A DNA stretch of 59,202 nucleotides, filler included, from Basidiobolus ranarum (Eukaryota): the NCBI GenBank assembly GCA_040143965.1. It is 2 parts of 2 records of this genome, joined end to end, with 100 filler letters (N's around TTAATTAATTAA, not from the genome) between each part and the next. Parts side by side here need not be neighbours in the genome. Positions count along the whole stretch, not along the records: positions 1 to 29,607 come from JASJQH010006979.1; 1 more part is not named here. One strand, given 5' to 3'. The notes below the pieces were generated by a model. The model was not told where the DNA came from. It worked only from the letters and a program-made list of their open reading frames with translations, and ran no database searches. The position numbers were made by a program, and so were the translations under genes. Position 1 is the first letter of the stretch. Each line of letters begins with the position of its first letter. Below are positions 211-57,652 of the stretch, in pieces.

Positions 211-3200
211 ATGGCTCGCAGTATGAAGAGGGAAGTAGAAGAGTTCCTCAGAATAGGAGACGACATCTTATTGTCTTCTGAGATTGGCGGCCTACTATTT
301 ACTGAAGGCCCAATTCAACCCCGTGTTTATTTAAGAGACGACAGCAGCCAAAGCGATTTTTTTCACGACGTCAATTCATACATTTTTAGACTAGAGCCGC
401 AGTACAACTATGAAGCTAACAAGACACTTCGAAAAATCTTCACGGCCCTCAAGAACCCTTTGTTTTTTGAGACCCCAGGCGAAGTGTTGAATTCTGAGGA
501 AGTTTTGGAAGAGACCAACCCGCAACTTGAAAAGCTTCGGAAAGCAGCTCTCTCAGAGAATGAATACAATAGAGCTGAGTGTCAACGTCTCAAAGGAAAG
601 GTTGTACTCTATGGACAGATCATCCAACTCCGTAACATTCACCACAATAAGTACCTACGAGTCAATACCAACCAGACTACTACACACAAAGGAACCACCC
701 TAATCATAGACTTGTCCAAGATGACTAGCAAAAAGAATTTCTTCAGAATCCTACCCAAGCACAGAATCCGTGGCGAAGGAGAACCGGTCCGTCTGGGTGA
801 TTCAGGTAAGAACTTTCCCTTTGTTGTACATATTACGTTTGCTGATACCGGACTGCTTTTATAGTTGTATTACAGTCGATCAAAACCGAAGGATACTTGA
901 AGGCTGGTTTATCCATGTTCACCCACGAAGTCTTCAAAACCCGACTTCATGAAGTTTACAACTCGCTAAATGCGTTTGGTTGGAAAGTCCATTGTTTTAG
1001 TCCTATTCAGACACTGAGCAGCAGACGACTCAAGGGCGGACATTTCATCAGACTCTATCATAAGGAGAAGGAGGGGTATTTACAGAACCTCCTTGGAACC
1101 AACCGTGTTGCAGTTCGGCCACATGTTTTCAATCCGTTGAACCCGCAAGAGAGTGATTCCTCACTGACATTCTGGCAGATCACCCTAGAGTCCACATTCA
1201 ATGGAGGTCTGCTGAAGGGCGGAGTTCGGTGCCGAATCAAATGCCCCATATCAAGGTTATATTTGCAGGTGGATCTTAATTCCAAAACCAGCGATGCGGT
1301 ATCCGGAAAAATCTTGTACAAGATTATTTTGGGGCCGCGAGATCCCGATGATGACAATACTTTGTTTGAATTGCAGTCACTGGAATCTGATGATACAAAT
1401 ATTATCACTGGATCCTACACCAAGTTCCGCCATGTGAGAACCCAGACATGGCTCCATTTGCACGATGTTGATGAGGAAGACGCAAGCAAAGCGACAAACT
1501 CACTTCAGCGCCAATATTCATTCTTGATTCATACGGGCCGTAGCGATGGATTTGCCGTGATGGCAACCAATCAGACCAGCTTTGATGATTGCTTCACGAT
1601 CACTCGTGTTGACAGCGAGCTAGGCGAGACTTTCAATTTTGTCAATAGCATGACTCCACATCTCGATCACTTCTTGGTCAAGCCCCGCGCTGCCACCGCT
1701 CGAAAAGCCTTCCCTATCGATGCTGAAGAGGATGAGAAGATTAAAAAGATACTGGTAAGGTGTTGACATGGAAATATTAGACATGTGCTCCTCAGCTCAT
1801 CCATTGCTTCTCTTAGACTTCATTGATCTATTTCTCTTCCAGATCTGGTGAGATGGATCCCAACAGGCGTATTGGACTACCGATTGTTGGTGAGTAACAT
1901 CGTTCTCTTCCATATCGTCTATACCTAATCGCATTTTAAACAGCCCATCAGGACATCCTCAGGGATAGTGGTATTATGGCCAAAATCTTGCTGTTTCTGC
2001 GCGCTCCCTTCTCTTTGAACGTTCGAAGAGCATTGCGTAACGATTTCAAGGCTAACGTGGATGAGGTAGAAGGAGAGGCCGAAGTGAGCTTGGAAGACTT
2101 GAAGAAAGACCCGGTATTAAACGAGATGTTATCTCTCTCATATCGTCTGACTTCCCAATTTCTCTTGGGAGATCATTCAGTCAATCAAAAGTACATATTT
2201 GATTACTTCCCCACATTCTGCAAACACATCCAGTACAATCTGGAGGTAACTCAGGTCATTATTTGCCTGTTACATGGGAATCGAGAATTGATTGAAAAGA
2301 TCACTCCCGAGCAGATTGATTTCTTCGTCAGTGGGGCCCTTGCCAAAAGAGATCCAATGTTCCTGGACATTTTGATTACCCTTTGCTCTTGTAATGACAC
2401 TCCCATCCGACAACATCAAGATTACATCGCCACGCAGATACTTAGCAAATTACTCTTTCCAGAGGTCGAATACCGAAATGGTATGACTTACATCTTTGAT
2501 GAAACTGACAATGTATCAGTGGAGATGCATGAATATTTCATTCGTAAACCTTCTCAAGCCAGGTATTTTGAAGCGATATTGAAGTTCATCAACGCTGTTT
2601 GTCTCGGCAGAAATGAGAATTCCTTGAGTCTTGTCACGGAGGTGTATCTAAAAGTCTCCCTAGAGAAGTGTTTAGTTTGCCTGTTCAATGAGAAATTGCC
2701 GCTGGAGATTAGAACACAGTATTGCAATCTTATTCGAGGTACTTGCTTTCAACATACTCTGGCTGGAATTGTTCTAACTTGACATGAATTTGCATATGTA
2801 GTACTTTACGTTGATGTTTACCCGATGTCCCCTATTTCGGAAGATCTTATTTTCGTCGAGTCGGAGATCACCAATTCCTCGAACTACTCAGTAGAAGGGT
2901 CATTGGCTAATATTCAAAGTATCAAGAAACTCACCAAATGGATAAGAGCATTCTTCACGACTCATCCAAGGGTATCGTATGGGTTCCACTAGACATGATA
3001 GCTGTGTCGTTCTAACATCGTTGCATTACTAGGTGACCAAGGATGAGAAGCTCAACACATTGATTTTCTCGGTTTTGAAGCTTATCAAGGGACTTGCTAG
3101 TTTCGGCTTTTACCATGAGCACATTACCATTGTTTCTTTGATCCGAACTTTGACCACCCTTCTTGATGGCCGTACGGATACCGAGTAAGTATTCCTTAAA

Positions 3201-6200
3201 CTTGCAGTAGCTATTCCGAGCCAAAATCTAACTTCAACTCATTTCTCAGTGAATATGGGTTAATCGATGAATCCAAAAAGATCGTCGATAGATCTACCAT
3301 TAGGTTTTTTATAGTCAACACTTTCCTTATTTCCTTCACCCCCTCCCGTTCTAACCACTCCTTGCTCACTCATGTTTAGCGACGAACGATTCCATTACAT
3401 AGAGAAGAACAAGATGATTATAGACATCAAGATTGAAATCTGTACTGTGCTTGAGTTACTTTTCAACTTGAGAACGGAAATTCGAGTAAGAAAGTTGTTG
3501 TACATTTGGTTGAAAAATGAAGGGTACGTTGGGTTCACTCACACACAAGACATGGAACGATAAATCATTAACTCGTTTTATTTAGAGATCAAAAGCGATT
3601 GAGCACGCTAGATTCCAAGAATTCCGACAAAGTGAATTCATGGGAATCAGCCATTGAGATCATCATCAAACGAATCTTCATGGAAACTCGTTACATCAAT
3701 CGAGAGACTGATATGATGCCAATTCTAATTGATCTTATCAAGTATCGAAACCAAAGGCTGAAGCAAGGCTCCATTGTTGTGATGCACAGATTGTACTGTG
3801 ATTACGAAGAATTGTTCGAAAAGTCCAAAAAGTCCTTCATACTGACTCAAAGTCAAGATATTCAAGTCTACTATTGGATCAGACCCCGGGTAACCATGTT
3901 CCTCACTCTTTCCCTTCAGCATTCTCACGAACACACTGGAACCAGAAAGATGAAGGAGATATTAACGGATTTCACAGATCTGTGCAGCGGTGCCGTAGTT
4001 GTGAATTTCGAGGGCAATCTGGTACCAGGTCCAGCAGCCGCTAAAGAAAGAAACATCATAGCCCAAAAAATCCTGTTCAATATGGAAATGCACTCGTATG
4101 TGATTGACTATCTGCACCGAAATACCTACGGCGAAAGAAAGGCAGAGTGGTTTAATGAGGATGTATTGGACTTGTTCTGGGCTTCCCTTTCTTTCCTTTC
4201 TGTTTGTTGCTACGATGATCGGGAACTACATGGCACTATTCTCATTCAAAACATTGACCTTCTGTTTGAACTCGTGTCTTACGACGCCCGAATGGTAGAG
4301 CCACTGATCGATATCTTTTCCAAGAGTGTGAACCTGTGTTTAAGAGTAGAGGAGCATCACATGCAACGTCTTCTTGAGCTTTCGAAGGGCTATTGTGGCG
4401 AATATCTACGTCTACTCCGAGCCTTAGTGAAGGTTTCAGGGAAAATCATCAAGCGTAATCAGCTCTATATCGCCGATCTACTGTTGGAGAAGAAGGACGA
4501 ATACATTGTGCTCGAAGCAAATCAAGACACCAAATCTGAACCTTATTTCGAACCACCTCCGGTCTCCTATCAAGCAGCATTGATCGATTTGGTGGCTACT
4601 TGTGCCGAGGGAGAAAACAGTCTTCAATCTATCTTCCAGTCAATTCTTCCAGCAGATCAAATCTTAGATGTATTGGCTAATCAAGAGTCTGATTATCTGA
4701 TCGAAAGGGCATATCTACGCTTCTTCATCGCTGTCTATTTATGGACCAGTAGACAGGGAACTACAGGCACCAGCTACATATTCGAAAATCCGTTAATTTG
4801 GACTTATGTGGAGAAACTCTGTAGACTTCTGACTAGCTTCAATCATGATCTACGAAACACTGATCTTCAAGAAAACAAGGCTGAGATGGAGATCAAGTCA
4901 ACGTACATTTACGAATCAGTGTTGATTTTCTTAAGACTATTGTTCGACATCTACTTCTCATCCCAAAAAAGTCCAGTCGCTCAATTCGATGCCGCCGAAG
5001 ACCACAGAGAACTGGGTAATAACATCGTAGATGAATTAGCGGCATTGGCTGAATTACCACCAAAGTCACCCAAGCACCTCAAACACTTGACCAATTGCTT
5101 GGACACCTTGATCATCGAATCAAACCTGTACGGAAACAAGAGGAGAGCAGTGTCAAAATCATTGTTCAACTCCCTTAGGTCCGTTCAACCTAAAAGAACT
5201 AGCGTAGAAAGTATATCTATCGCGTTAGGTACATTGAATCAAAACTTCCAAAATTTCCTTCACCGTATGATGACATCGGGTAAGATCGTGGAATCGGAGA
5301 AAGAGGAATTCCGTCAACTCAGTCTTCACTTTCCGTTAGAGGAATCTCATACCCTTGGAGAGTACTCTATCGTGTCACTCGTAGAATATCTATCCGGTCG
5401 ACTTAACGATGTCGAGGATTCCCGTAAGGAAATATATGACATTCGCACAATGAGGATTTTGAGAAATCTTGTCAACAATGTCACTGACGAAATAGAACAT
5501 ATGCACCATCTAGATGAGCCTCTAGAGTGGGCACGCCTACAGCAACGAAAGATAGAAATTCAAAATAAATTGAACAAGCTTGGCTGTACATTGATGGCGG
5601 AGAAGCTCCTGTCCTCCAATAGTCAACAAATCTATATTAGCGCGATGAAATTACTCAATGCTATGCTTGATGGGGGCAATAAGAAGGTTCAGGTAAGTGG
5701 AATTATGTACTCAAACTAAGGTTTGCTTCCTCATACTAACATTTCCCTTAGGATACTCTTGAAAACTATTTCCTAGGGACTAGGTAAGCAACGATCAATT
5801 CACTCGTAGATATAACTTCACATCGTTGATAATTTAACTCATGTTCTTCTTCAGAGTGGAGCGATTCTTCTATTGTGTCCATCATAAGTTAAGAGAAGGA
5901 ATCCTTTCTCTTCGCAAAGCTAAAGAGCTACTCGTTGTGGATGCCAAGAAGAAAGAAAGAAGTTCCACTCTCTCGTCAAAGATTAGACGTAGACTCCGAG
6001 GCCATAAAAGCGGACTATCCGTTAGCACATCGAATTTTTTGAACCAAATACTCTCCCACTCGGACGACGTACCTATCATAACCCTGAACCTATCTCATAC
6101 CAAAGATGACAACAAGATATCCAAATATCTTCAACATGAAGATAAGACCGATCTAGGTACTACTGCACAGGATTTCGAAGCTATCTGCCACCTTATGAGA

Positions 6201-8571
6201 CTCTTACAACTAATGGTGGAGGGTCATAATTATAGTCTGCAAACGTATTTTAGTGCTCAAGGAGATAATATCAAGAGTTTCAATTTGGTCACTGGAGTAG
6301 TGGATTATCTACATGCAATCGTTCCCATTACTAGCCTTCAAGACGAGAATCTGATATTCCAAACCATGCCAGTAATTACCCAAGTATTCGACACTATCAT
6401 TGAAATGGCTCAAGGATGCATATCCAACCAAGTGAGCATCTTCAACGCCAAGATTGTGCAATCAGTGAACATAATACTACGTGAGCCATTCCATCAATGC
6501 CCAGCAGAACAAGCAGTAGAGCTCAAGGGAAAAGCAGTTCTATGTCTTTTGAGTTTACTTGAAGGCGGTAACATCGAGGCTAAATCGATCTTCAGAGAGA
6601 TGGCCAATACACTAGATTTGGATACTATCAACCGCAACCTAAGAAATCTATTCGAGCAAAGTAAAAATGTGACTTGGAAGCCTGGAAAGCAGTCCGCCAT
6701 TGATTCCGGATTTTTGTACTGTATGTTGATTATGACATTGTTCCCAGCGCTCACGAAGGAACAACAATATCGCTTCCAAAATGAACCAGCCTTCACTTTC
6801 TTCAAAAGGAACACTGGTCAGATTGAAATCTTGCGTGAACTCTCCCCGGGTGATAAACGAGTAGTACCCGTACTATTTCCAATTCCAGAAGTTTGTAGAT
6901 ATTTGCGTGAGGACACTAAGGAACATTTCCTGTGGAATGTGAAGAGAGATTCAGCTGATGGCAAAATCGAGGATTTCGTAACCAAATCAGAGGATATCAT
7001 CTATGAAATTGAAAGTCAAGCTCGAGTCGCTAGAAACTGGTATCTCTCAGCGTTGTCCGGATACCATTCCTTATGGTGGCAAAGTGCTTATCTAATGACT
7101 CTTTTACTGAATATCTTGGGATTAATGTGTGCCGCAGCGCCAGAAGAAGCTGTTGGCGGAGGAGGGGAGTTGTTTTTGGGATATGGTTGTCATTGGCTTA
7201 CTGAAGCAGTCAGAATCAGCTTTGGATTGATACACTTGTTGCTATGGGCTTTATCTTCTGGAGAGTTTCTCCTAATCCAATTGCCCATTCTTATCAATAG
7301 AAAAAGATTAGAAAAGTTAAATCAACTGCGAAAGCAAAAAGCTAAAGAAGACGCACACCTACAATCACTTGAAATAGGCTTCATGAATGATGAAGATACT
7401 TCAGATAATAGCCAAAATGACACATCCACCCAATTTAGCGCCATCATATCTGAAGGAGAGAGTCTCTCGCCATCGGTAAGTTTGTCCACTCAGCAGTGTA
7501 CGGATTCCAATGCTAACATCCATCTCCATTCACCCTAGAATTTTATTGAAAAAACCATGTATTTTGTCATGGAGCCTAAGGCGCTTTATCATGTGTTTAT
7601 GGTGCTATTGTCTATCGGTGGCCTTCGCTATCATATGCTATACTCCATACATTTGCTAGATTTTATATACAGAGATCAAATCCTTCAAGGAGTTATCGCC
7701 AGTGTCACAGTCAACATCAACTCCCTAACTAAAACGGTAAATAACATTTGTTTACTTCAATCTTCACCTTGCCAAGGAGTAAGGGGTCATCGGCGTAGAC
7801 TAATCCAGTGAAATACGGATGTTTAGGTTTTACTTGGTGTTATCATTATATATGTGTATTCCGTTGTAGGATTTGTTTACTTCAGACATTCTTTTGATAG
7901 TGAACAAGGGCTATATTGTGATACTCTGCTTGATTGTTTCGTCACCGTTCTTGCCTATGGGTATGTTTCATATTGATTTATCTGAGTTACTATCCAGTAA
8001 CTAACATTAGTCCAACACGTGGGGTAGTATCCGAGCAGGTGGTGGATTAGGGGACGTGCTACAAGCACCTGTACATGGAGATAATTCCTATGCCTATAGA
8101 ATCATTCTGGACCTATCCTTCTTCCTCATCGTGATCATTTTCCTGTTGAACGTTATCTTTGGTATTATTTTTGATACATTCGGTAGTTTAAGAGATGAAC
8201 GATCATCTATTCAGAATGACATGAAGAGTGTTTGCTTTATTTGTAATATTAGTGCGACCGAATTCCAAAGACACGCCAAAGGATTTGAACATCATATCAA
8301 GCATGATCACAACATTTGGCAGTACCTCTTTTTCTTGGTTCATTTGAAGACAAAGGATGTTACCGAATATACTTCTCAAGAATCTTACGTAGCGGAAATG
8401 TTAAAAGACAACGACTACAGCTTTTTCCCGGTTAATCGGGCTTTATGCCTACGTCAGAGGGAAAAGCATGATGATCAACGCATCACAAACTTGGAAGAAA
8501 TGATCGCAAGTCTAGTTACTCGTATTGAACAACATACCATCCCCCAGTCAACCAAGTCTAAGCATTATTAA
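211..8571 (+). CDS. ITPR: Inositol 1,4,5-trisphosphate receptor-like Ca2+ release channel (multi-exon)
   Basis: Successive ORFs joined by short GT-AG introns. MIR motifs (VLYGQIIQLRNIH, GGHFIRLYHKE, KFRHVRTQTWL), RIH-like regions, LLQLMVEGHN, pore motif spliced as YGIRAGGGLGD, LNVIFGIIFDTFGSLRDE, and C-terminal CFIC...HIKHDHNIW zinc motif. Start codon uncertain. Confidence 0.93.
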
Positions 8572-11261: not shown

Positions 11262-12372
11262 CTTTCAAGGATATCAATGACTTTGTGAGAATGCTTTTGA
11301 AAACGCAAGAGTTAGGTGGCGCATTTGGCTTCTTAATCTTCCATTCCATATCTCCCCATGGTTGACCAAATGTTTCCCACGATTTCACTTGAAAATTACC
11401 AGACATTTATGACACAATGAGACATGCCATTGAGCGTGTGTAGATGAAAACAGCCAATGAAATCTACAACAATCAAACCTAACCCTAACCTTAAAGTACC
11501 AAATGATTTATTAGTAGGATCAAACAAGGATTGAAAATATGAGAAGATATAATGAGCATTAGGTTGGCCATGTAGCCCTAACCCTAAATATGTATGTAAG
11601 AATCATTGCCATCCACGTTCCCTGGCTGCTGGCTGCGATGCCTGGCCTGCGATACCTGTCCGCGTAAACAAATATTACAGATGGCCATATTTCATCCAAT
11701 CATGAATAAACAAAATTCACTGTAACACTCGATAATTTCACACAAGTATGATCCAGGTTCGCTTTCGTCGAGAATGGCTTGTCTACAACTGACTATGCAA
11801 CCATTTACAATATTGATGGGAACTTGTAGCATTGCTCACTGGTTCAAACAAGAGGCTGTTTCGTATACAGGAACCAAGATTGGTCTATACAGCTCGCACT
11901 CGAGGGCCATAACCCCAAGTAATTGATTGAAACATATCTGTTTCATTGACCGGATACCCGTCTCACGAACATGCTCCCAAAAGGGATAAATGTCAGGTTC
12001 ACGCCAATGAACGTGAAGTGCACATAAAGATGGTGAAACATTTTGTAACTTTGTTCGTCCATCTTAATTCGCCAAATTAGGAACAGTACAAGAGAGTATC
12101 AGGTTAATCAGTAGATTTTAAGTTTTGTTGTCAGGAAGACAAACCTCACATCTGGTTTAACAGCCTTGTCTCCTATTTTATCTTATCGCGCCCCATTGGT
12201 GTATCCACATTTTCGGTCGGGGATTTGGAATATATTGTTGTGAGTTGTCCACACTCTCGCTTGATTACTTCACTTACTTGCTTGGTAACTCTTCCCTCAA
12301 GTTGACAAGTTGGCTTTGAGAGCGGACTGGGTGAAGATTTCCCTTCTCTACAAAATATCTTTATCATCTTAC

Positions 12373-13239
12373 ATGAAGTTCCCCAACGGTGAAGTGGCTA
12401 GGTTTTTCTATGCTTATGTGTTTCTACAGCTGGTTGTTTGCTTAATGGTAACTTTCCAACAGGTCTCTGACTGGCGTTGGTTAGAGTCAGAGACCAAAGT
12501 ACCACTAAGAGACGGAGGCTTTGAATTGCTGCCGAAACTAAATACTTTCGATATACCTGATTTCTTAGTTCTTTCCTTGTTCGTGTCAACGATGGTTTGG
12601 TTAACGATAGCGTCGAATACTAGGACACAAAGGATCATCTTTTGGAGAAGAATATTCTGGATATCTGGGTGTTTATACTTATTCAGAGCATTCACCATTG
12701 TTTCTACCACTCTCCCTCCAACTAAAGAATGCCAGCCAATCATCGGCAAAGATATTCATGAAATGTTGCGAATTGGCGGTCGTATGATCTTTGGTATTGA
12801 TAAAGCGTGTACTGACAACATATACTCTGGACACACTATGATGTTGACCTCATGTATCATGCTCTGGAAGATCTACTGTCCGAACAAATATGCCAACACC
12901 TATGTCCAGTTACATGGATCTATTGGTTTGGTAACTATTGTGGCCTCGCGATTACATTACACCGTGGATGTTTTACTCTCCTTGTTCATCACTTATGCAA
13001 TGTATTCGGTCTACTTTTTCTTGGTACGAATCGCCATGTTTTCCAGATATCATCTCACTATAGAATTACTGGAAAGTAGAGATAACGATGAATATCAGAG
13101 AATCGCTTTTACTCCGGAAATAGTCAATCGACATTTGGTGGCATGGATAATATGGATGGATGGACTAGATTTACGCTGGGAAGAATGGAATACTGCCGAA
13201 AGTTTACCTTTCTACCAGCCAAAGCGATCTCTTTACTAA
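12373..13239 (+). CDS. Sphingomyelin synthase / PAP2_C family membrane phosphotransferase
   Basis: PLRD, RAFTIVSTTLP, CTDNIYSGHT and HYTVDV motifs with several TM segments. First in-frame ATG at 12373; an upstream exon is possible. Confidence 0.85.
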   Translation: MKFPNGEVARFFYAYVFLQLVVCLMVTFQQVSDWRWLESETKVPLRDGGFELLPKLNTFDIPDFLVLSLFVSTMVWLTIASNTRTQRIIFWRRIFWISGCLYLFRAFTIVSTTLPPTKECQPIIGKDIHEMLRIGGRMIFGIDKACTDNIYSGHTMMLTSCIMLWKIYCPNKYANTYVQLHGSIGLVTIVASRLHYTVDVLLSLFITYAMYSVYFFLVRIAMFSRYHLTIELLESRDNDEYQRIAFTPEIVNRHLVAWIIWMDGLDLRWEEWNTAESLPFYQPKRSLY

Positions 13240-13608: not shown

Positions 13609-14682
13609 TTACGCGTGAACTCGCTGGGCTGATCGAACGATATTGGGGGTTTTGGTGCAAATAAAGAGTTCGTATATGACTCCACCCAACAATGCACCCG
13701 CAATCGGACCTGCTAAAGGCACCCAAAAATAATAGTTATGCTCTGTCCAGACACCACTTCCCCAACCAGCAATCGATGTGAATATCCTGGGGCCTAGATC
13801 TCTCGCAGGGTTAAGTGAATAGCTTGTCAAATAACCAGTACATATACCAATGGTCATAAGTAATACCCCCAAAAATATAGGGGCGAATTCGGCTAAATCA
13901 GCCACTTGAAATTCTTGGGAAGCGAATATCCCCATCACCAGCAACGCAGTGGACAATAACTCGGTATAAAAAGCATTCCCATTTCGTAGATATTCCTGTG
14001 GATAAGTGGCAAAAAACCCAGCGGTGGATTTTGGTCCTGAAACTTGGCGCACTCCACCATCAAATTGGTCTAACATTGGATAGAATATACTGTAAACTAA
14101 ACAAGCGGCCAGAAAAGCTCCTAATAATTGACTGAAGATATAGCCAGGAACTCGACGTAACGGGAATCTCTTGAACGCGGCAAAAGCCAAGGTAACTGCG
14201 GGGTTTAAATGGGCACCCTATGATAAGTAACGGTGAGAATTAGATTAAGGTATTACCAAAGTGCCAGCTGCTGTAAAGTTACTTACAGAAACTCCAGAGT
14301 TAATATAGATAGCTATACTCAAAGAAAATCCCCAACCAATGTTCACACTTAACCAGGAGCCGGCAATTTGGGAGTAGCTTAAAAGTACCTGGTTAACAAC
14401 CGATAGTCCAACAAATACCAGAACTAAAGTCCCCAGAAATTCGGCCAAGTAAGGTGCGTAGTTTTGACGAAAGCGGTATATCATTGGAAATTTTCTTCCT
14501 TGGATTATGGCAGTTAAAGGAGTTACTTCACTAACAGCCGTAGCATCAGATATTTCGGATATACCCGGAGTATTGATCGGCACAGAGTTGTTGGTAATTA
14601 AATTCCCAGTATTGCCATTGTAACCATGAATTTCGTCAGGTATCTCGATAACTTTTTCGCAAAACTCTGGTGTGGGAGCCAT
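13609..14682 (-). CDS. Aquaglyceroporin (MIP family), 2 exons
   Basis: AEFLGT, SG|AHLNPA across an intron at ~14218-14286, and SLNPARD. Confidence 0.93.
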
Positions 14683-15165
14683 TTGAAGAGTGTTGATGTC
14701 AAATTGGGGAACTCGTTAACTTATATAAGAAAAAAGGGAGAGAAATGGGAGAAAATGGGAGTGGTGGATGGGTAGATTACTTTGAAACCTTCGTAGATAC
14801 AAAAGAAGGATGCTACAATCAGAAATTCCACTCTAGGGGTATTAGTGAAAAATGGCTGAAATGATGTTTGGTTTCTCAGTACACACTTAATGTGACCTGA
14901 AGAGGTCAAACATGAGTTTGTCACGATGCACAGAGGTCTTTCAACATAGAGATGGAATTTAGTGCTAGTTTAGCTCTGGAAGTTCCATACAATATCGGTG
15001 ATGGACAGGAATGTGGAGATATTGGTCTCAATCGAGTGTGGATGTAGATAATTGATGCCCCTTTACCAAAGAAACCTCCTACTTTAGTTTAAGGGAGGAG
15101 AGATCCTCGAAACAAGCATACTTAAAACCAAAACAATTAAAACGTGAACATTTCATGAACATTTT

Positions 15166-15236
15166 GATGGTTAAGGAACAAAAACAAGTTGATGAACTTT
15201 TCGATGGTTAAGGAACAAAAACAAGTTGATGAACTT
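15166..15236. repeat. Tandem direct repeat, 37-bp period, 2 copies
   Basis: GATGGTTAAGGAACAAAAACAAGTTGATGAACTT starts at 15166 and again at 15203. Confidence 0.85.
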
Positions 15237-15434
15237 AATTTACCTCTTATCCGAAAGATTCTTTTTTGTGTCGAACTTTAGAAAATTACTGAACTTTCCT
15301 GCTTGTAAATGAAAATTGACTTTATTGATGCTAAGCACATGGCATCAAGAGATTAATTACATGTGGAATGGGGAAATTACTATGGGATGTTCATATCTGC
15401 AACAATGCCTCCCAGTTATTCTTATAAAATGCAT

Positions 15435-16331
15435 TTAACAATCAATTGCAAGTGCGGTCTTTTTGGTTTCTTTGTGATGTGGTCCACAATAGATAAAGAA
15501 TGTATAGACAGCACCACCCAAGATACTACCCAGTATAGGGCCAACGATAGGCACCCAGAAATAATAGTTATACGCAGTGAAACACTCTTTCCCCCAACCC
15601 GCAATCAGCAGAAACAAACGCGGTCCAAAATCTCGAGCTGGATTAAGTGCATAACCGGTCAAGTAACCAGTACTAATTCCAATTACCATTAATGTGAGGC
15701 CTAGAAAGATTGGCGCGAATTCTACCAAACTGTGTTTCTTCATATCTTCTACGGCAAATATAGCCATTACTAACACGGAGGTAGATAAAATCTCGGTATA
15801 CAGCGCGTTGCCATTGTTAAGGTAAGGTAACGGGTAAGTAGCGAAAAATCCTGCTGATCCTAAAACTCCGGTAACTTGACGTACGCCACCATCAAAATTG
15901 TCAATGGCTGGATAAAATATGCTGTAAACCAGCGCTGCACCGACAAAAGCTCCCAAGATTTGTGAGATAATATACCCAGGTACTTTGCGAAGCGGAAAGC
16001 CCTTGAGTAAGTACAATGCAATGGTTAAAGCGGGATTTAGGTGAGCACCCGAGATTCCAGCGTTAGCATAGATTGCAATACTGAATGCGAACCCAAACCC
16101 AACGTTGATACTTAGCCAAGATCCAGCGGCTCCTTTCATATTTACATGAACTTGAGTCACTACAGACAGGCCCAGAAACACTAATATAGCAGTGCTGAAA
16201 AATTCAGCCAAATAACATCGGTAAGTTGAACGAATCTTTCCCCAGGCCAGAAAGTATTCTCCATGCAAATAAGCTTGAATTCCTAAATGCTCACTGTGAA
16301 CATTGCTTGGCTGGATCTCAGGTGTGTCCAT
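15435..16331 (-). CDS. Aquaglyceroporin (MIP family), intronless tandem paralog
   Basis: AEFFST, SGAHLNPA and ALNPARD; clearly similar to the neighbouring gene. Confidence 0.95.
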   Translation of the reverse strand: MDTPEIQPSNVHSEHLGIQAYLHGEYFLAWGKIRSTYRCYLAEFFSTAILVFLGLSVVTQVHVNMKGAAGSWLSINVGFGFAFSIAIYANAGISGAHLNPALTIALYLLKGFPLRKVPGYIISQILGAFVGAALVYSIFYPAIDNFDGGVRQVTGVLGSAGFFATYPLPYLNNGNALYTEILSTSVLVMAIFAVEDMKKHSLVEFAPIFLGLTLMVIGISTGYLTGYALNPARDFGPRLFLLIAGWGKECFTAYNYYFWVPIVGPILGSILGGAVYTFFIYCGPHHKETKKTALAIDC

Positions 16332-17029
16332 AATGGTTTGCAGAGTATTATAGCTTCTTTTTAACCAACGAGTAGATTTTTCAGAAAAACTTTCTGAAAG
16401 AGAAGTCGAGTGATTGAGGTGCGAGGAATTGAGCTTATATATCTTCGTAAGTCGTGGTTGACGAAATAAGTTTTGATATCAAAAGGGATTTTCCCATTTT
16501 TAAATCTCGTGAACTAAGTTTAAGTTCGATTAGGAGTACGAAAGAAATATACTTCGAAAACCTCCTCCATAAGACACTTGTATTTGCTAAAAATGGAGTA
16601 AATGATATTGTGGATAGTTATATTCAAAAAGAACCATATATCTCCCCTGCATATTCCACTCTTTATATCCTCAACGCAAGTGTTTCTTGTACTGTATTGG
16701 AACCCTTCTTCAGGGTTGAAAAGATAAAATATGAATCCGTCTCGAATTGGTGTCACATTACCCCAGCTTGTCATAAAAAACACTAACTAAAGATTTCCAA
16801 CGTGCGAACAAGCTAGTTACTAATAACACTATCCAGTTATCTCCAATTTCTAATTTATTAGGCATCGATCGTGGCAATGCAGCGAATATAGGTTTCAAAT
16901 GAGCTGGTATATATCTGTCTGTTCAGTGCTTGATTAGATAATAGGGTCGATTCAGTATGATCAATTTTTACAATATAATTTTGATAGTTCAAATGACCTA
17001 GCGTGCTTCGTTCTAAACAACAACCAAGA

Positions 17030-19540: not shown

Positions 19541-19944
19541 ATCGCAGTGAGAGTGTGGGGGTGGGCGTGGGCGTGGTCGCAAGTGCTCTCTATAGGAACA
19601 TTTGGTGCCTGCGAAACAGTACAAAAAAAATTGTTTTTCCAGGCACTTTTTATTAGCGACGAATTGTGAATCGCAGAATGATCAAATTAATTGATTGATA
19701 CAGAAGTCGAGTTGACTTCAATAAATAGTAAATATAACTAATATGGAAAGATTTGGGACTAACCTGGTGAAAACAAAACAAACCAACAAATAGTACTGAA
19801 AATTAATGCTATCTGGTATTTCCACATACTCAAGTTGCCAAAGTGACCGGTGAGCTCACTTTTAGTTGCAGAGATTGACGAGTTGAATATAAAGTATCAC
19901 ATTGAATAACAAAGCAACCGAAATCCTGTCAAGCACACTCTTCT
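19541..19944. promoter_or_regulatory. Short divergent intergenic region between RPC25 and separase (candidate bidirectional promoter)
   Basis: About 400 bp between head-to-head start codons; tandem GGGCGTGG GC-box-like motifs at 19563-19576. Confidence 0.45.
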
Positions 19945-22900
19945 ATGTCAGACGTTGAATCAACAACACACCTCCTCAGCACATTATCAGATTTTAAACT
20001 ATGTAATTCAGACCTAAGCAATCAAATACGGAATCTGTTGCTTTCTCCCTTTAGTCTGGCTGTGCCGAATACCTCACGCACTCGTAGACTAGAGAAAGCT
20101 GCAGATTCTATTGACCTCAAGGCGCACGCAACAAAATATGGATCCTTCGCCATGAGGATCATAAACCAGAACACAGCAAAAATGAATACTCTAAAGACAC
20201 GCAACACGGCTGAGGAGGATTTAGCAGAAGCTACTCATTGTCTAATTGACAGCTCCTTTTGTGCAATAGAAGCTCTTGATAAAATGCGGGAACATTTGAA
20301 TATAAAATCACTGGAGCTTGAAAAGGCCACCTCAAATCTGATAACCCTATCAATCGATTTTCGAATGGTAATCCAGCAATACCTTGTTTCCTGGTAGATA
20401 GATTATTAACAATTTGATAGTATACGAAAGGGTTGGACGAATTGAGAAAACTGCGCGACAGACTGATAGTAGCGAGTGGAGGAAAACCCAATTCTACAAA
20501 AAGAACAGGCACTGCTTCTGCGAGAGGGGGGAAAACCAATGCTAGAGTTCGAACGGTCAAAAGTACCACTAGAAAACCCAAAAATTCACCAGAGCCAAGT
20601 GGCGTGGATTCAGTGACATCATATGCTGAATATTTTGACTTTCCTCTGAACGACAAATGTACCGATCGTGAACTAATATTGTTGATTCTTGCATGCCAAT
20701 TAAATGTCATACGATGTTTATCTGAAATCGACTATTTCGGCTTCGCTAAGGTCTATTCCTTTTCACTTAAAATGAGGGAAACAAGAACTAACGTTGAGGA
20801 TTTTAGGTATACCTGGAGGACTTGTGTCGAAAGGATGGGAATGCATTTGACTGGTGCATGAAACTAAAAGCCATAAACCAGGAGAACGCTTCTAAACAAA
20901 CAGAGTTGATGTTTCGTGCCCTTCAGCGAGTAGCTGCAAAAGTCAATTCCGAAAACGGTAGCCAATTCCAATCCATTTTTTCTCACTTGGTCCAATGCTT
21001 AACTTTTGACTAGGATTATATAGTTTTAAATTGCGCTCACTATCAATGAGATTCTTCTATGAATCCACTTTGTTCAGTGTCAACGAATTTTGTGATCTAG
21101 TTGTTAAAACGGCCATAACGTATGACAAAAGTGTCCCTAAAGGTAGTAGTGAATATTTACAGCTGTGCGATGTTTGGACTAACTCGGTTATATCTTAGAC
21201 GACTCTAAATATCAAAGTTTGCTAATTTACTTCAAGCAGATGGGAAACTTGTTAAGCCTACACACACGAGATGTCGAAAGCTCTCCAAAATTACTAGCAT
21301 TCAGGGAATATTACATTCATGTTGCAAAGAAGGTACCTTCATTTTCTACGGTTATGTTTATTATAGGTCAAAAAATTCAAATTACTTTCTCAGCTTAACG
21401 ACATGGACAGTGTGAAGGCTGCAAACAACCTGGTAGTTTCCATGAACCCACCCAATCCAGCCGGTCAGGAGTCCACCTCTGGTAAGAGTCTCAAAAACTC
21501 TTCTGCTAGCTTGAATTTTGCCAGTACAGTCCTTCAAGAAAAACTCTCCAAGCCCCCAAGTAAGTGCTGTAAGCTAAATAGTTTATTTCAGTATCTTCTA
21601 ACTTTTTCTTATCTCAGACAGGGGTAAAGAACCTCACGATCCGATTTTGGTTCTCGACGAAGCCTTCAAAGTACTGAGTATTGCCCTTGCGGATTTTGGG
21701 AGAGATGGCGAAGAAAATACCTTAGATATCAATGAAGTTCGACGCTTCTTACGATCTATTGACATGTACAGAAAGTCTCACTCGGCATTTATTAGTAAAG
21801 AGCAGGGTGAAACTACGGAGATGTGCAAACTTACCTCTAAATCCGAGTTGGTTTTGTTTTTAGCTATTGAGGTAGCATGTAATGCATGTTCTACCAATGG
21901 AGTATTCGTAAGTATAGGCCAGTATATTCAGTCTGCTTCAATCAAATATTCACAAGTATTTAAACAACTCAGGGCATTCCAGGGATGCTTCAACCAGATT
22001 CAGATAAAATCGGCCTCAACCTTGTCGATTTCGTGGTGTTTCAGGCCCGGATGATGTTTGAGAAAGATACAACTAAGAGTACCAGCAAGATACTGCTTCT
22101 GTTGGATAAGGCTGCATCTATCGGAGATTCGACCAGCTCCCGTGAAGGCATCAAATGGGTAGCAAGTTCTTGCTACAACTTCGGAATTGCACTCTACAAA
22201 TGCAAAAATTATCCACTTGCCATTACTTACCTCTCCAAGTCTTGTCAACTTCTGGAGCAATTTGCGGAGGCAAAAGCCTCCAACTTAGAGGCGCAAAGTA
22301 AAAGCGACCTTTGGATGCAACTCAACAAACGATACGAGGCTTTGGGGATATGTCAACAGGCCATCGGTGATTTCAAGGTATACGTTTATTGTGTACCTTT
22401 TTATTCATATTTTTATTAATGTACTCTTTTGTAGAACGCACAATGGTCCTTCGCAAAGTCAATGGTTTATATTCCTGAAATCGATACAAAGCCGCTTCAG
22501 AATAGCAAATCCACCGCACCTCTCTTGAACTTGATAAACCCTTTGGTTAGCAGATATATCAAAGCTGGTATTCATACGAAAGATCAAACCTACCGATCTC
22601 TTTACGAGCTCCCACAAATGGAATCCATTGAAAAGTCTAATCTTGGCTACATTCTGGAAAAGGAGATGTATTTTTTAGAGATATTCGGAGCGCATTATCC
22701 CACCCAGAATCCACGTCAAAGTATTATAGAACGAACTTTGGATATATATGTAGCTGAGGAATATCCCATCAGAAGAGCAAGAGTTTTGATTGAGAAATGC
22801 AAAATCTCTAGGTTCTCTCAAGCTGACGGCGAAGGAACTCTGAAACTATCTCAAGAAGCATTAGAATTACTCAAGAATGAGCCAAACGGTGAGGATATCA

Positions 22901-25900
22901 GCCTCGATTACTTGAGAAATCATTATCTTGCAATCGCGTTCTCCTGGAACGGCATCTTACTTGTAGAGAACGAACAATACGATCCTAAACCATTCAGAAT
23001 GGCTTTACAATTGTGGAACCGATTAATGAGTGACTTGCCTTGGTATGGAAACGGCAAAGTTTCGGTTCACAGCATCGCTAAATCTCGAGAAATATTCGGC
23101 GATGTAGAGGCTCTTTACGCACACCTTTATATGCTTACCGAATATTTTGGTATTTTAGAGCAGTATGTTTATCAGATTATGTGTTTGAGATTGATGTTGA
23201 AATTGAACAATATCCGCAAGAATAATTCCGAAGCTGCTGAAGATACTGTAAAGGCTTATATGGGAATCGGAGATTCGTATTTACGACTTGGGTATACTGG
23301 GCAATCTGGATTAGCATTGTCTCAGGCCAAATCTTTGTTGGACTCAAGTGGTTGTTCTGCAGATGTTAAACTTATGTGGTTCTTAAATTACGCTCGCTAT
23401 TTGTGTACAATTGGAAATGAAGAGAAATGTTTGACCGCGTTTAACTCAGCTAGAAACTTCGGAGAGGAATGGATAGCAAAATCACAAGATACCAATAGTA
23501 AACGTGCAATCAAGAAGTTGTTAGGAAAAGCGTACTATGTTCGCTCTATCATAATGCACCGAATGGGTTTCCTGGATTTTGCTATTATAGATGCTACTAA
23601 ATCACTTCGATTTCTGAGTTCTATAGCCCACAGCTATTCTAAAGCTGCAGGTAAACTTAAGCAAGGTCAGATAGAGATGGACTCCACACTTGGCCTGGAT
23701 TCCAATGGGAAGAAGTCTTATAACATGGAACTACATGGTCTTTTGGGTGCATCATCTCAATGGGAAGTCGTCAAAGACCTATTGGACCTGTTCAGTCATA
23801 CCTCACGCCTACATGAAATGAGAGGATCCATCAAAGAGGCTGAGTATTTCAATCGTAGAGGTTTAGAGCTTGCCCAAGCTACCCGAAGCCATGGCGCAAT
23901 GAACATCTTCTTGCTGTCGGATGCTGAACTGGCATATCGAAAGTATCTTTGGAATGAGAGCAGAGAAGCCCTGAATCAGGTTGTTGAGCATCAGGCTCAA
24001 ATGAAGGACGATGTTTTTAATTTGGATCAAGCTATGGCCTATCTGAATTTAGGAGAATTAAATCTAAGACAAGAAGAATATGAGGAAGCTTTGGAATCCT
24101 TTGAAATGGCAGAGGAAAAAATCACCGCTTCTATGGATGAGGAATTCATTAAAAACCTTGAGGAACTCTCGCTTCCTGAATGGCAGACACCTAGAGAGAA
24201 GCGTATGATTGATGCGCTACCCACTGAGCTACTCAAATCCGACCCACTGAAGAAGAGTAAAGTCCAATTCGAATGTTCTATGCTCTCTCATTTACATGGA
24301 ATTCTTTCATGTCGATTAGGTGGCCTATTTATAAAGAATGGTGATCTACAAGAGGGAGAGAAGATCATGGACTTGGTTGACACTAGACATCAGTTGAAAC
24401 CCGAGCGAGCAGAATTTGAATTAAATTTAGCGAGAATCAAACTTCAAGAGGCTGCCTCATTACTTGAAAGTCATCAGACTCTAAGAATGCTGCAAGACTC
24501 TGTTCTTGTCCTTCCTGTACTAGAGTTTTCTTCCCAAAAAGTGGTGAAGAGACGCGGACGAACGGAAACCACGATAGCAAATATCGGGAAACTGTTTGAC
24601 CAAGCCCAAGAATATTTGCACAATGCATATTGCTTGGCTTTCGACTCGGCGATTCCGTATGTCATACATGAAGTGTGTTTAGCTAGGGCTGCATTATTCA
24701 TGCTAAAAACTTATTCAGATCCATCAACACATGCACTTTCTCTTGATACTTCACTAATGACTGCATTCACCCTTGAGATGACTAAGGCAGTGACAGCCCG
24801 CCGTGAATTCTTATCGTTGCTAAGGAGTCGCCTTGGCCCTCAAACTAGCGATGACGATTACTGTTGGCCAGATGAGATCAGCAATACACGTTTAATGACA
24901 AATCAAGAAGCAAGGCCATCAACGGTGGAGAGCGATTATAAAAGTGAGATTCTTGATTATTATGAAAGAGAGCTATTGATAGAACCAGAAGAATTTCAAG
25001 ATAAATTCATCAACGGCATACCCGACGAGTGGACTGTATGTTCAATGTCGGTTGACCTCGAACGTGAAATGCTTTATATTGTTAGATATAGAGCTATGCA
25101 TGTGCCGACTGTTCTAAGGTTGCCTATGCGAAGACATTTCCTACGCGAAGGTGAAGAGGGTAGCTTTTCATTTAAGGAAGCATTTGATGAACTTCAAAAA
25201 ATCCTGCATGCGAGTGATCAAACCACAAGTAAAGATCGACGCTACGAAACACGTGAAGAAAAACTCGCATGGTGGGAAGAAAGGAAAGATTTGGATACGA
25301 AACTGAAGTTATTGTTAGATAACCTCGAAAAGTACTGGCTGGGTGGATTCAAAGTAAGTCTTACCATCTTAACTTATTCTTTTTGTTGATAGTAATGAAC
25401 AAACAACCCTCCATTAGAATATTCTTGTGCCTGGATCTCATGCCTCTCCCAAATGTATTGAGGAGTTCTCCATGGCGGTGCACAATTTGTTATTGCGAAC
25501 AGCGGCCCCCAAGTCTATTGGAAAAGTGCGACAGGTCATGATTGACAATGAAATAGCGCAAAGCCTACTACTATTAGGGAGCAATGCCAAAGACACGGAT
25601 ATTGAGGATGTGATTTATTTTTTGCTTGATATATACATGTATAGTGGTGTTCCAGTAGAATTTGACGAGATTGACTTTGATGAAGTAAGAATTGGAAATC
25701 CTGCCGTCTTTGTTGTTGTATTCATGAAACTGACTCGCCCTTCTCTAGCTTATAGAAGACTTCAAAAGTACCATCCTCTCTTTCGCTAGCCACTTGGAGA
25801 ACCCCACTAGTGATAGTCATATGATACTTATTCTGGATAAACACTTGCAGGCTTTCCCGTGGGAAAGTACCAATGTTCTAAGGAGTGTTCCTGTCTCCAG

Positions 25901-29414: not shown

Positions 29415-29607
29415 ATGAGATCCAACTTAATTGCCCTTTTAGCAGTCATAGCTTTCGCTACATTAGCGTCAGCCCACGGGTCTACCTCTACTAGTATGGT
29501 GACAGTTACAGATGTTGGAACTGACAGCGAGCCGACTGTGACCACAAGTAAGAAGAAGGGGAAAGGAAAACATAAGAGTACCCATTCAGATGAAGATAGC
29601 GAGCCTA
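29415..29607 (+). CDS. 5' part of a secreted Ser/Thr/Lys-rich protein, truncated by the gap
   Basis: TATAAA at ~29335, signal peptide MRSNLIALLAVIAFATLASA, and a repeated DSEP motif running into the Ns. Confidence 0.65.
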
Positions 29608-29707
29608 NNNNNNNNNNNNNNNNNNNNNNNNNNNNNNNNNNNNNNNNNNNNTTAATTAATTAANNNNNNNNNNNNNNNNNNNNNNNNNNNNNNNNNNNNN
29701 NNNNNNN
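29608..29707. other. Artificial 100-bp contig linker (N44-TTAATTAATTAA-N44)
   Basis: Symmetric N runs flank a palindromic 12-mer that gives stop codons in all six frames. Confidence 0.95.
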
Positions 29708-34551: not shown

Positions 34552-36403
34552 TCAAAAATTTTCTAAAAATCAAGGTAATGTTAAGTTAGCGGTTTGGATA
34601 ATCCATGATGTCTGGTGGTTATGAAGGGTACCTTTGTTGTAATAGAACTTCGTTCCATCCTCTTGTGGTTGATTGAATTTGTTACAATATGTATGCAGCT
34701 GTTTGCCAAGAGGTTTGGGTCCACAAAAGAAAACTCCAACATCTGTAGCTGGATGATGATGGCATAAGCCACTGAAAACCTGGTCGAGATTTGGACGACC
34801 ATAATGAGTAGGTGCGCGTAATCCAGTCAGCGCATCTTGATAGCCTTCTTCATCGTTGATAATAACATTGTTCACCTCATCTTGCTTCAATCTACCAGTC
34901 AAATATGTATGAATCTCGATAAACTGCTCAATATCCTCCTCCTCAATAGCCTTTAACAGATCTTGGAACCACACGAATGCCTGGCAAAAGTAACAGCAAG
35001 ATTAGTGAAGTTCATTAATATGAGCTGCCAAAGAAAAATCTCTCACCTCTTTGTCACGACAAATCCAGAAGAAGTATACTTTACGAAGTCTGGTAGACTT
35101 CATAGGATAATTGACACGATACCAAATAGACTTTAAAATGGAGGCAAATGGTGTGACACCAATTCCAGCACCAACCAACACGGCAACTTCGTAATTGAAA
35201 ACATCTTCACTAGCTGATCCAAAAGGACCATCAATCATCACCTTGGGCAGAATTTTGTTGACCGGTGCTTTGGAGTTGATGGAATTAGGCTCTTTAGAAT
35301 CCACATTACAACCTAGCCTTTTAGCGAGTTCTTTGGTGAAGTTTCCAACCACTCTAATATGAACTGAGAGATAGTCTTCCTCCGGGGCAGAAGTTAAAGT
35401 AAAGGGATGCCATTGATGAAGTGAAACTTCTGGACAGCATAAGAAAATATATTGACCAGCTTGTGAATGGAAATAATCTTTCTTAATTTGAATCTCTACA
35501 ACCTTGGAGGGGTGAAGTACCACTTTAGAGATAAATGTACGATGACGGCCACGCACCTCTCTTAGAATTCTCTCACAAAGATAGATAGTCCCCGAAGCGA
35601 TCCAATACTTCCAGAAAGACCCACCGGTACTACAGTATGGAGGTCTATCAGGCTTAATTAGGCAAAACATTCCATGGATGGAGAATAAGCCAAAGTATAT
35701 GGAGAACAGATGGTGTGAATACCAAAATAGTTCGAAATTTCTTTTGCGTACGCATTTTAACCCAAGTATACAAATGAACATAAGAGCGAGCAGCATTACA
35801 TGACCGGTCCAACCAGGTCCAGAAATGAATGAGTACCATACCCAGCTGTGCGCAGCTTTAGGCCCAGAGGAAGCATAATAGAAGTTGAAGTAATGGGCAA
35901 TAGTATGCACCCAGGTGAAAAACATGATTGACCACCCTGTTACTTTGTGGAAAGAAACATTCTTATCAAAGGGAATGACCTTGTTTAGAGGTGTTGTACG
36001 CAACCACGATATAACGTTACGGCACATAGGGAACAAAATAATCCCAGTGTCGACATGCAAAGCAAGGGCAGCCGCTCTGGCAATAGGAAAGGTGATACCG
36101 AAGGCTGCACGAGAGTTTGAAAAATTATCTCCGTAGTAATAATTGAGGAAGCCCAAGCCATAAATTAATATTTGAACAAATATCCATAAACAAAACCACA
36201 CGTATTTCTGTCCTAAAATAAAGAAATAGGACGTCAGTTTGAGTATTTCTCAGGGTTATGTTGAGAATCAACTTGGAACAGAGTAGAAGTTCAGAAATTT
36301 AAAGGCTATGCTGACCATCATTTATCATCCAAATATGAAACTTTTCTCTCCATGTTGGTCTTGTCTGGATCACCGGCGGATAAGCTTGATATGGGTTTAA
36401 CAT
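34552..36403 (-). CDS. noxB: NADPH oxidase catalytic subunit, NoxB/gp91phox type (4 exons)
   Basis: WMINDG N-terminus, ferric-reductase TM histidines (FHK, HTIAH, FWYSHH), QWHPFTLTS, DGPFG, GAGIGVTPF, FFCGP, spliced YNK|ENF*. NoxB versus NoxA assignment is inferred from the N-terminus. Confidence 0.9.
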
Positions 36404-55878: not shown

Positions 55879-56826
55879 TCAAGGCTGTCCAATAAATGAT
55901 TTAGGGAAATAAGGTTTAAAGTAATCTTCATATTTCCTGTTAACGCACATTCCTCCACCAGTAGGTCCGATATGAGGACAATGGAAGGCTGGCCTGTAAG
56001 GGATCATGTTGACATGGATTACTCTGCACAATACATTGTCTGCTCCCATCTCGTCAGGAAGGCCTAGAGGGACCTGTCGCTGTAAGAAGTCCAGACAATC
56101 CTGAGTAGTTTTATATTGTTGATTTTCGTTCAAACAATATTTACTATGCGATTGACAAATTCCTAATGCTAGGAATTTCTGTACGAGACCTGGGAGTGTA
56201 GCAGGGGTAACTTCTGATAGTGGAACTTTCAGAAAATTAGCAATCAATGGTGCTATCTGGGGTAAGAAGCTTCGAAAAGCTAAAGACCAGCGTCGAAATA
56301 CGGCATCATATTGTTCTATTTCTCCCTTATGATTGAACCGTAACCACACATCGACTTGAACAGGTAAATGTATTCCAGTAGCTTCATGTACAAAGTCGAT
56401 TATCACGCTTGTAGATACAACATCTCCAGTTGTGGCGAACTCAAATATACTGTAACTTTTAGGGACACCCAAGATAGTTGGCACATCGGAAGAGGTAGCA
56501 AGATTAGAAAACAACCCGAATAGGTACTCTATGTTCTCCTCGAGGTCATTGAAAGTCCATGTAATATCCACTCTTCCTCGAACATCTGAGGCTAAAATTC
56601 CTGGTGCCTTGCCACTCCTTGCTATAGCGGTATTGTTAGGGTACATGAAATTTTCAAATAATCTGTTTACATAACCCAACTTCCTCTTGTAGTTTTGGTG
56701 CTGATTGATGTCAATGTTGGCCAAAATCCCACGATCCAAGCCAGACTGAGCGTTAGATTGGCCAACCAATTGATTGGAACCAATTGTAAGTAAAGTTAAA
56801 AGGAGTGCAGCTTTTTTGGTAAACAT
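55879..56826 (-). CDS. Conserved secreted fungal-type hypothetical protein with Cys/His-rich C-terminus
   Basis: Intronless 315-aa ORF with signal peptide, EYLFGLF, and CRVIH...RPAFHCPHIGPTGGGMC. Confidence 0.85.
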   Translation of the reverse strand: MFTKKAALLLTLLTIGSNQLVGQSNAQSGLDRGILANIDINQHQNYKRKLGYVNRLFENFMYPNNTAIARSGKAPGILASDVRGRVDITWTFNDLEENIEYLFGLFSNLATSSDVPTILGVPKSYSIFEFATTGDVVSTSVIIDFVHEATGIHLPVQVDVWLRFNHKGEIEQYDAVFRRWSLAFRSFLPQIAPLIANFLKVPLSEVTPATLPGLVQKFLALGICQSHSKYCLNENQQYKTTQDCLDFLQRQVPLGLPDEMGADNVLCRVIHVNMIPYRPAFHCPHIGPTGGGMCVNRKYEDYFKPYFPKSFIGQP

Positions 56827-57652
56827 GTTTGGATGCTACATCCAGCAATCATTCATCGCCTTTTATAGTGCTTTCAAATCCACCTGGCCAGGTAAACAAC
56901 AGGCAAGCAACTGGTAAATAAATCTCCTACATCATATGTAAGAGTGGAAGGATCATTTATTGTTTACTAGGTCAATATGCACTTTGCCGAAACAATAAGC
57001 AATAGCTTCCCAAACTGTATCTGTGCCTAGAAGCACGCATTAGACTTGTGATTGTTGAGCCTAAAATCAAATGGCTTGCTCCTTTTTTCTTAAATACTTT
57101 GATCACAATTTATTGACACAGTAAGTAGCTAAATGCGCGCATCTACTGAGCCCCTTGGGTCTAATACGACCTGAGTCATTTTAGCCAGCTTTTGATGCAT
57201 TTTTTCCTCTACTACCTAATAGTACATTTGTATTGTTTTTGTCCTCTATGACGCGAAAATCTCTCACCTTTAAATACTGCTTAGTTCTAGATGCAGTTAT
57301 CTGCTTGACGCATTGATATTCTTATCACTGAATAGGTGTAATACAATATTCCCCAGAGGCAATAGTCAGTCTGCTCATGTATTCTGCTAACAAGGAAAGG
57401 GTAAGATGATGTTCAAAACTGACTAAGATAAATATCAGATACACATTGTAACTCATATGAATAATTACCGTGACTTATTCTGATACCAGTTGATATATAG
57501 ATCATTGGTACTGATTATACTGCTCTGGTAACATAACTGAGGAATTGACTATACTAGTAATATTCTATAAAACTATTGAACATGTGACAATCAGATGCTA
57601 AGAGCAGTTAGACCACACATGATAAACTCTCATAAAAAATTATAGGGGATAC

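Follow-up and report, generated by a model that had tools for sequence, protein, structure and literature searches.

An intact IP3 receptor-family channel gene in Basidiobolus ranarum whose protein lacks most IP3-coordinating residues and may be gated by something other than IP3

The stretch of DNA analysed here (the window) spans 59,202 nucleotides of the Basidiobolus ranarum assembly GCA_040143965.1, filler included, with its first contig (JASJQH010006979.1) ending at position 29,607 and a run of Ns separating it from the second part. Near its start lies an IP3 receptor (IP3R)-family gene of 14 exons and 2502 codons, whose single stop is terminal and whose frame holds zero in-frame internal stops, all 13 introns being GT-AG and 54-90 nt long (Table 1). 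The genes around it appear to be unrelated. An earlier note on this DNA, made from the sequence alone, had joined a peptide across the 54-nt intron at 1890-1943, and that splice holds: the GT-AG intron belongs to the stop-free 14-exon model, and the same junction is found in the protein of a second gene copy (P0001) and in a relative (P0003). A Pfam scan of seven exon pieces, run without the small exons 3, 5-8, 10 and 13, placed the domains in the order suppressor, MIR, RIH, RIH-associated and C-terminal pore (Ion_trans), with a second RIH domain weak and below cut-off (E 0.003); SPRY and RyR-repeat domains were absent from these same seven pieces.

Table 1. Features of the window, with residues given in window-protein numbering and their rodent IP3R1 equivalents after the equals sign
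Feature	Position	Strand	Details and basis
IP3R-family channel gene	211..8571	+	exons 211-805, 865-1754, 1817-1889, 1944-2738, 2802-2971, 3033-3184, 3250-3303, 3380-3523, 3586-5692, 5752-5783, 5855-7475, 7539-7736, 7827-7960, 8028-8571
Suppressor domain (beta-trefoil 1), exon 1 part	238..801	+	Pfam PF08709, E 5.9e-14
MIR beta-trefoil 2, beta half of ligand-binding core	1029..1493	+	Pfam PF02815, E 1.6e-10; PDB IP3R1 matches
R261 (=R241, kept), K265 (=A245), G269 (=K249, lost)	1050..1076	+	alignments
Remodelled pocket loop: R283 (probably =R265), no R269, P289, acidic E294 at the S274 position	1116..1151	+	alignments, model
ARM1 helix spanning intron 3: R513 (=V498), V519 (=R504), H521 (=R506), D523 (=K508), R526 (=R511, kept)	1868..1963	+	alignments; codons V519 1886-1888, D523 1952-1954, R526 1961-1963
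RIH domain, alpha half of binding core	1946..2446	+	Pfam PF01365, E 3.7e-19; alignments; contains H597/S598/V599 (=Y567/R568/K569; 2174-2182)
RIH-associated domain	6168..6476	+	PF08454, E 2.7e-21; both Ca2+-activation-site glutamates (6219-6221, 6402-6404)
Pore: filter GGGLGD (8038-8055) and TM6 with gate Phe and Ile	8029..8200	+	PF00520, alignment
C2H2 zinc finger and ATP-pocket residues (8233-8310), Ca2+-site Thr (8371-8373)	8233..8373	+	alignment
Intron-free frame resembling a sphingomyelin/inositol-phosphoceramide synthase-type membrane enzyme	12289-13239	+	by eye
Two tandem aquaglyceroporin-like genes	13609-16478	-	by eye
Large separase-like gene	19906-25389	+	by eye
Run of Ns	29608-29707
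NADPH oxidase (NoxA-like) frame	35002-36249	-	by eye
318-aa frame, secreted-looking, Cys-rich C-terminus	55879-56835	-

The pore and C-terminal zinc motif, described as intact in the earlier note, are indeed unbroken, and the filter, the Phe and Ile of the TM6 gate and the C2H2 zinc ligands all align with rat IP3R1. The Cys, Phe, Ile, Lys, Asn and Trp of the ATP pocket align as well, with K2221 replaced by Glu, and the Ca2+-activation site reads Glu, Glu, Thr, the corresponding site of human IP3R1 being E1938, E2002 and T2614 in the accessible text of bioRxiv 10.1101/2022.03.07.482538. Across 18 full-length fungal rows the residues of the Ca2+ site, gate and zinc finger are kept in 16-18, with the first Glu and the Thr of the Ca2+ site invariant and the second acidic position either Glu or Asp. 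With the full frame, filter, gate, zinc finger and Ca2+-activation site all kept, the claim of an intact channel from an early-diverging fungus is borne out.

The fold was predicted on the second-copy protein, for which an AlphaFold2 model (P0001, 1054 aa, 56-row alignment, mean pLDDT 87.3) contains the two N-terminal beta-trefoils and the armadillo fold of the IP3R/RyR superfamily. Its best structural match is IP3R3 7t3p (Z 33.9, rmsd 4.2 over 856 residues), and identity to mammalian IP3R in the N-terminal 1000 residues, taken from the model match, is about 24%. The four top matches are IP3-bound IP3R3 states (Z 33.5-33.9) and ligand-free 6dqj scores 31.6, yet apo 3uj4 (31.9) ranks above bound 3uj0 (30.5). 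N-terminal fragments of ryanodine receptors score about 27-28 (2xoa, Z 27.6), and for the window protein itself ITPR1-3 outscore ryanodine receptors in each region searched against solved structures. Mammalian ITPR1-3 (PDB 3jav, 5xa0, 7t3p, 1n4k) and the window protein share domain order, fold, size class, filter, gate, zinc finger, Ca2+-activation site and most ATP-pocket residues. Ryanodine receptors have the N-terminal three-domain fold without an IP3 site and share the Ca2+, ATP and zinc sites, but they are about 5000 aa long and carry SPRY and RyR-repeat domains. A ryanodine receptor identity was rejected on these grounds of length, domains and regional scores; by a length within the range of about 2500-2800 aa, lack of SPRY and RyR repeats, and closer sequence similarity to ITPR than to RyR, the window protein belongs by descent to the IP3R branch.

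Genome searches with the binding core, the pore and PF08454 recovered the window gene and one second copy only, and no canonical IP3-binding paralogue, these counts being lower bounds in a fragmented assembly. The second copy, which is likewise non-canonical, is split over contigs C410 (120-3842, L003) and C428 (30-4592, L012); its N-terminal part matches P0001, a protein named Basidiobolus ranarum by NCBI, at 99% in clean exons. The window protein is 84% identical to P0001 over 1024 aa, and the two copies are about 80-84% identical at the protein level. Over 1022 codons, dN between them is 0.054 in the suppressor, 0.097 in the core and 0.107 in the region after it, against a dS that is saturated or about 3, which indicates that both copies are under purifying selection. 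The two copies represent an old duplication with saturated synonymous sites. A pseudogene or mis-splicing was ruled out by the intact frame and the purifying selection between both copies.

We scored the IP3 site at ten basic residues, which we take to be positions 241, 249, 265, 269, 504, 506, 508, 511, 568 and 569, using rodent IP3R1 numbering counted on solved chains. Such a set of ten basic residues is described as important for the site in passages of PMC3194816, and in rat IP3R1 the 4- and 5-phosphates are contacted by T267, R269, S274, K508, R511, Y567 and K569 and the 1-phosphate by R504 and R568 (accessible portion of bioRxiv 10.1101/2022.05.27.493711). Only three of the ten are kept in the window protein (R241, R511 and probably R265), or two in another alignment register, and Y567, T267 and S274 are not kept either. 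As all 11 canonical animal rows in the same alignment score 10/10, this low score is not a matter of chance. The assignments of R504 to V, K508 to D and Y567/R568/K569 to H/S/V, proposed by eye in the earlier note, were reproduced by a phmmer comparison of P0001 with solved rodent IP3R1 chains, in which the 504-511 helix and the 567-569 turn are gap-free, and by two multiple alignments (FFT-NS-i and L-INS-i, the latter without P0064), after 56 of 151 proteins not spanning the core had been dropped. Its central claim that most IP3-coordinating residues are missing is thus upheld by three alignment methods at 504-511 and 567-569, as is the retention of R511, and R265 is probably kept too; its statement that nothing else remains overlooked R241, which is kept as R261.

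The counterpart of R265 depends on the alignment, being R283 in FFT-NS-i and H285 in L-INS-i. The AlphaFold model of P0001 places the candidate Arg within strand 275-280, and with the register read from these strand boundaries R283 is probably the R265 equivalent. Neither register puts an Arg or Lys of the window protein at the R269 position. This shifting placement is what could be said for regarding the gene as a decaying or non-conducting relic, or its pocket as an artefact of alignment, a reading we consider very improbable given that all 2502 codons are open, both copies are under purifying selection, pore and gate are intact, and three alignment methods concur on positions 504-511 and 567-569. 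The gene thus encodes a protein whose channel anatomy, fold and conservation are those of a selected IP3R-family member and whose cleft is stripped of most of its phosphate-binding charge.

Scanning 1.84 billion representatives yielded 822 matches at E 0.001, and among the best 150 of these 822, which were listed, the top matches come from chytrids (Phlyctochytrium, Dinochytrium, Blyttiomyces, Chytriomyces, Rhizoclosmatium, Polychytrium, Cladochytrium, Entophlyctis and others) and Mucorales (Apophysomyces, Phycomyces, Mucor, Absidia and others), the protein of Phycomyces blakesleeanus (P0170) being annotated as an IP3 receptor. An ESM Atlas search added nothing beyond family membership. A channel-region tree built from 66 rows and 514 columns, with P0201 left out, resolved a fungal clade of 20 rows with SH-aLRT 100, made up of 9 chytrid and 7 Mucorales rows, the window protein, P0003 and 2 further rows, separate from a canonical animal clade of 11 animal-type rows (SH-aLRT 99), so that the window protein falls outside the animal ITPR clade. 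Five long-branch proteins (P0023, P0030, P0058, P0065, P0070) have fungal-like loop motifs, and two of them, P0065 and P0070, adjoin the fungal clade (SH-aLRT 90). Extra domains in P0178 of Dichotomocladium (PF02197/PF00027) and in P0152 of Dinochytrium (PF01738) are probably products of merged gene models.

Within this clade, pocket residues were counted over 46 sequences from chytrids, Mucorales and Basidiobolus (fragments including P0019 and P0002 left out), many of which are close kin, so that the counts do not represent independent events. K249 is lost throughout (0/46), as is any Lys or Arg at loop position 287 in the R269 region (0/45), and on the ARM1 side R504 (2/45), R506 (1/46), K508 (2/46) and Y567 (0/46) are almost or entirely gone, with R568 present in 10/46, K569 in 12/46 and both together in 2/46. 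Kept are R241 (42/46) and R511 (44/46). The variability of positions 504, 508, 568 and 569 (entropy percentile 0.65-0.80 among 399 columns of 17 representatives) fits released constraint. Other positions are fixed: the pocket loop is Pro-rich, with P289 in 44/45; the S274 position, set by counting eight residues back from an invariant Trp, is Asp or Glu in 45/45; His occupies 506 in 39/46; Arg or Lys occupies 498 (R513 of the window protein) in 46/46; and K265 (=A245) is conserved in 28/28 rows. A Lys or Arg at 265 occurs in 17/45 sequences, nearly all from Basidiobolus and Mucorales, whereas most chytrids are without it.

The altered pocket, as read from these alignments, is therefore a clade trait of chytrids, Mucorales and Basidiobolus and not special to this gene: the homologues of Phycomyces blakesleeanus, Mucor, Apophysomyces and Absidia and of the chytrids Phlyctochytrium, Chytriomyces and Polychytrium share clade, domains and altered pocket with the window protein, Basidiobolus differing in its two copies and in its Asp at 508. 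The loss singled out in the earlier note is thus real here but extends throughout the fungal clade, nor is it confined to fungi: of 77 non-fungal rows, 18 retain at most three of the ten basic residues. We rejected the new basic residues as fungal innovations, as K245 and Arg at 498 both occur outside fungi; the R513 motif is also present in Naegleria and Balamuthia proteins, which points to an ancestral feature.

It is conceivable that the cleft binds another ligand, such as an inositol phosphate other than IP3, a phosphorylated small metabolite or a protein partner, with the Pro loop, His506 and the Arg residues making the contacts, since the fixity of the Pro, the acid, the His, R513 and R511 across three phyla could define a new site. 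We judge this improbable, as the ARM1 face meant to close on the ligand (504, 508, 567-569) is variable, there is no candidate ligand, and the conserved residues may have a structural role instead.

A second ITPR family, remote from the canonical one, is present in molluscs (P0020, P0161, P0187-P0199). This non-canonical family (molluscs, for example Patella P0020, Mytilus P0161 and oysters, with other eukaryotes) is the nearest group to the fungal clade, though weakly so (SH-aLRT 87; FastTree 0.72). It shares with the fungi a Lys at 245 and a longer loop but, unlike them, keeps 7-8 of the ten basic residues in 9/9 rows, including 508, 511 and 569. If this sister link holds, the IP3 site would have been lost on the fungal stem.

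The reading we favour, with a probability of about 0.5, is that the window gene encodes a working release channel that is not opened by IP3 in the animal manner and would instead be run by Ca2+ and ATP with a self-occupied cleft. The protein, which represents Basidiobolus in a single orthologous group shared with chytrids and Mucorales, would form a tetrameric intracellular Ca2+-release channel; the animal-type IP3 site of the group was presumably lost before these phyla split. As five or six contacts, positively charged or hydroxyl-bearing, are gone and a carboxylate takes the place of S274, IP3 probably cannot bind as it does in animals. The invariant Asp or Glu of the Pro-rich loop would occupy the place at which S274 contacts the 4- and 5-phosphates, close to the retained R511 equivalent, and would there repel IP3 or mimic its phosphate, so that the two halves of the cleft may be held by the charges of the protein itself. 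Because the acid is invariant and stands beside an almost invariant R511, an internal acid-R511 pair is the simplest use for both; an essential salt bridge is disfavoured by two Mucorales that have Cys at 511 and retain the acid. The main opening stimulus would be cytosolic Ca2+, aided by ATP as a co-activator, a RyR-like mode of working in a channel that is an IP3R by size and descent. Against this stands the observation that the acid is not exclusive to fungi, occurring in 14 of 70 other rows (3 of 96 rows left out of that analysis), and that, according to passages of bioRxiv 10.1101/2022.03.07.482538, the Capsaspora IP3R keeps the Ca2+-site residues, apparently without mammalian-type Ca2+ regulation.

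The conserved R241, R511, R513 and K265, and in part the Lys or Arg at 265, suggest that the cleft could still bind a phosphate, and the channel may accordingly still be IP3-gated, with R526, R283, R513, H521 and K265 binding IP3 weakly or in a different pose, the mode presumed for trypanosome receptors. We regard this as the less likely but most serious competitor of a Ca2+/ATP-run channel. Several conserved basic residues lie near the cleft by alignment, and there is precedent: in the accessible portions of PMC9694693 and PMC6027440, trypanosome receptors with equally poor cores are IP3-activated, releasing Ca2+ on IP3 in IP3R-null cells (PMC6027440), and the authors of PMC9694693 prefer continued IP3 gating for oomycete receptors, whose IP3-binding residues are also poorly conserved. 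Moreover, from sequence alone Prole and Taylor (2011) suggested that a messenger other than IP3 acts on the trypanosome homologues (passages of PMC3194816), the same kind of argument as ours, and later work demonstrated IP3 activation (PMC6027440). As described there, trypanosome and oomycete homologues combine an intact channel with a poorly conserved IP3 site, as here, with the difference that the trypanosome channels respond to IP3 in experiments. Weighing against IP3 gating are the absence of K508, Y567, R568, K569 and R269, whose columns drift, the lack in most chytrids of even the basic residue at 265, and the invariant acid at a phosphate-contact position, which strengthens non-IP3 gating. 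The suggestion in the earlier note that something other than IP3 gates the channel is thus plausible and the leading reading, with the acid adding weight and the IP3-activated trypanosome receptors speaking against it.

IP3 itself can be made in Basidiobolus, as PI-PLC is encoded in the genome, which also favours an IP3-gated channel; matches to PF00388 (PI-PLC-X) number 2 strong and 3 weak. Both strong matches, on C7978 (L011) and C3599 (L007), contain introns, and on C7978 segments resembling PH, EF, X, Y and C2 domains can be recognised by eye. To our knowledge, Dikarya keep PLC without any IP3R, a point against IP3 gating. An IP3R homologue is reported in Mucor and IP3R is reported absent from late-branching fungi (passages of PMC9694693), and IP3/Ca2+ pathway genes are described as retained until the Mucoromycota-Dikarya split (accessible text of PMC10406608). 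Our full-text literature search, thin on subscription papers, found no account of how a fungal IP3R works or of its ligand pocket, and the available parts of PMC4263762, PMC7016017, PMC11085791, PMC8318260 and PMC7935092 contain nothing on the fungal pocket. Fungal IP3Rs and degenerate pockets in protists were known, and what the present alignments add is a fixed remodelling across three fungal phyla with an acid at a phosphate contact.

A wider proposal, which we put forward tentatively and hold to be doubtful, is that all early-diverging fungal IP3R homologues form an IP3-independent class, in which the cleft was plugged on the fungal stem by an acidic Pro-rich loop mimicking phosphate and paired with the R511 equivalent; these channels would be Ca2+/ATP-gated and RyR-like independently of animal RyR, and their uncoupling from phospholipase C would long predate the loss of the gene in Dikarya. 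The orthologues of Mucor, Phycomyces and chytrids make non-IP3 gating testable. If IP3 still opens these channels, they would be one more trypanosome-like case, in which the animal residue list fails to predict the response to the ligand. If they ignore IP3, the link from IP3 to calcium would already have been broken at the receptor in early fungi, what Dikarya later lost with the gene would have been a different function, and the fungi would offer a natural, small IP3R-type channel for studying gating without IP3.
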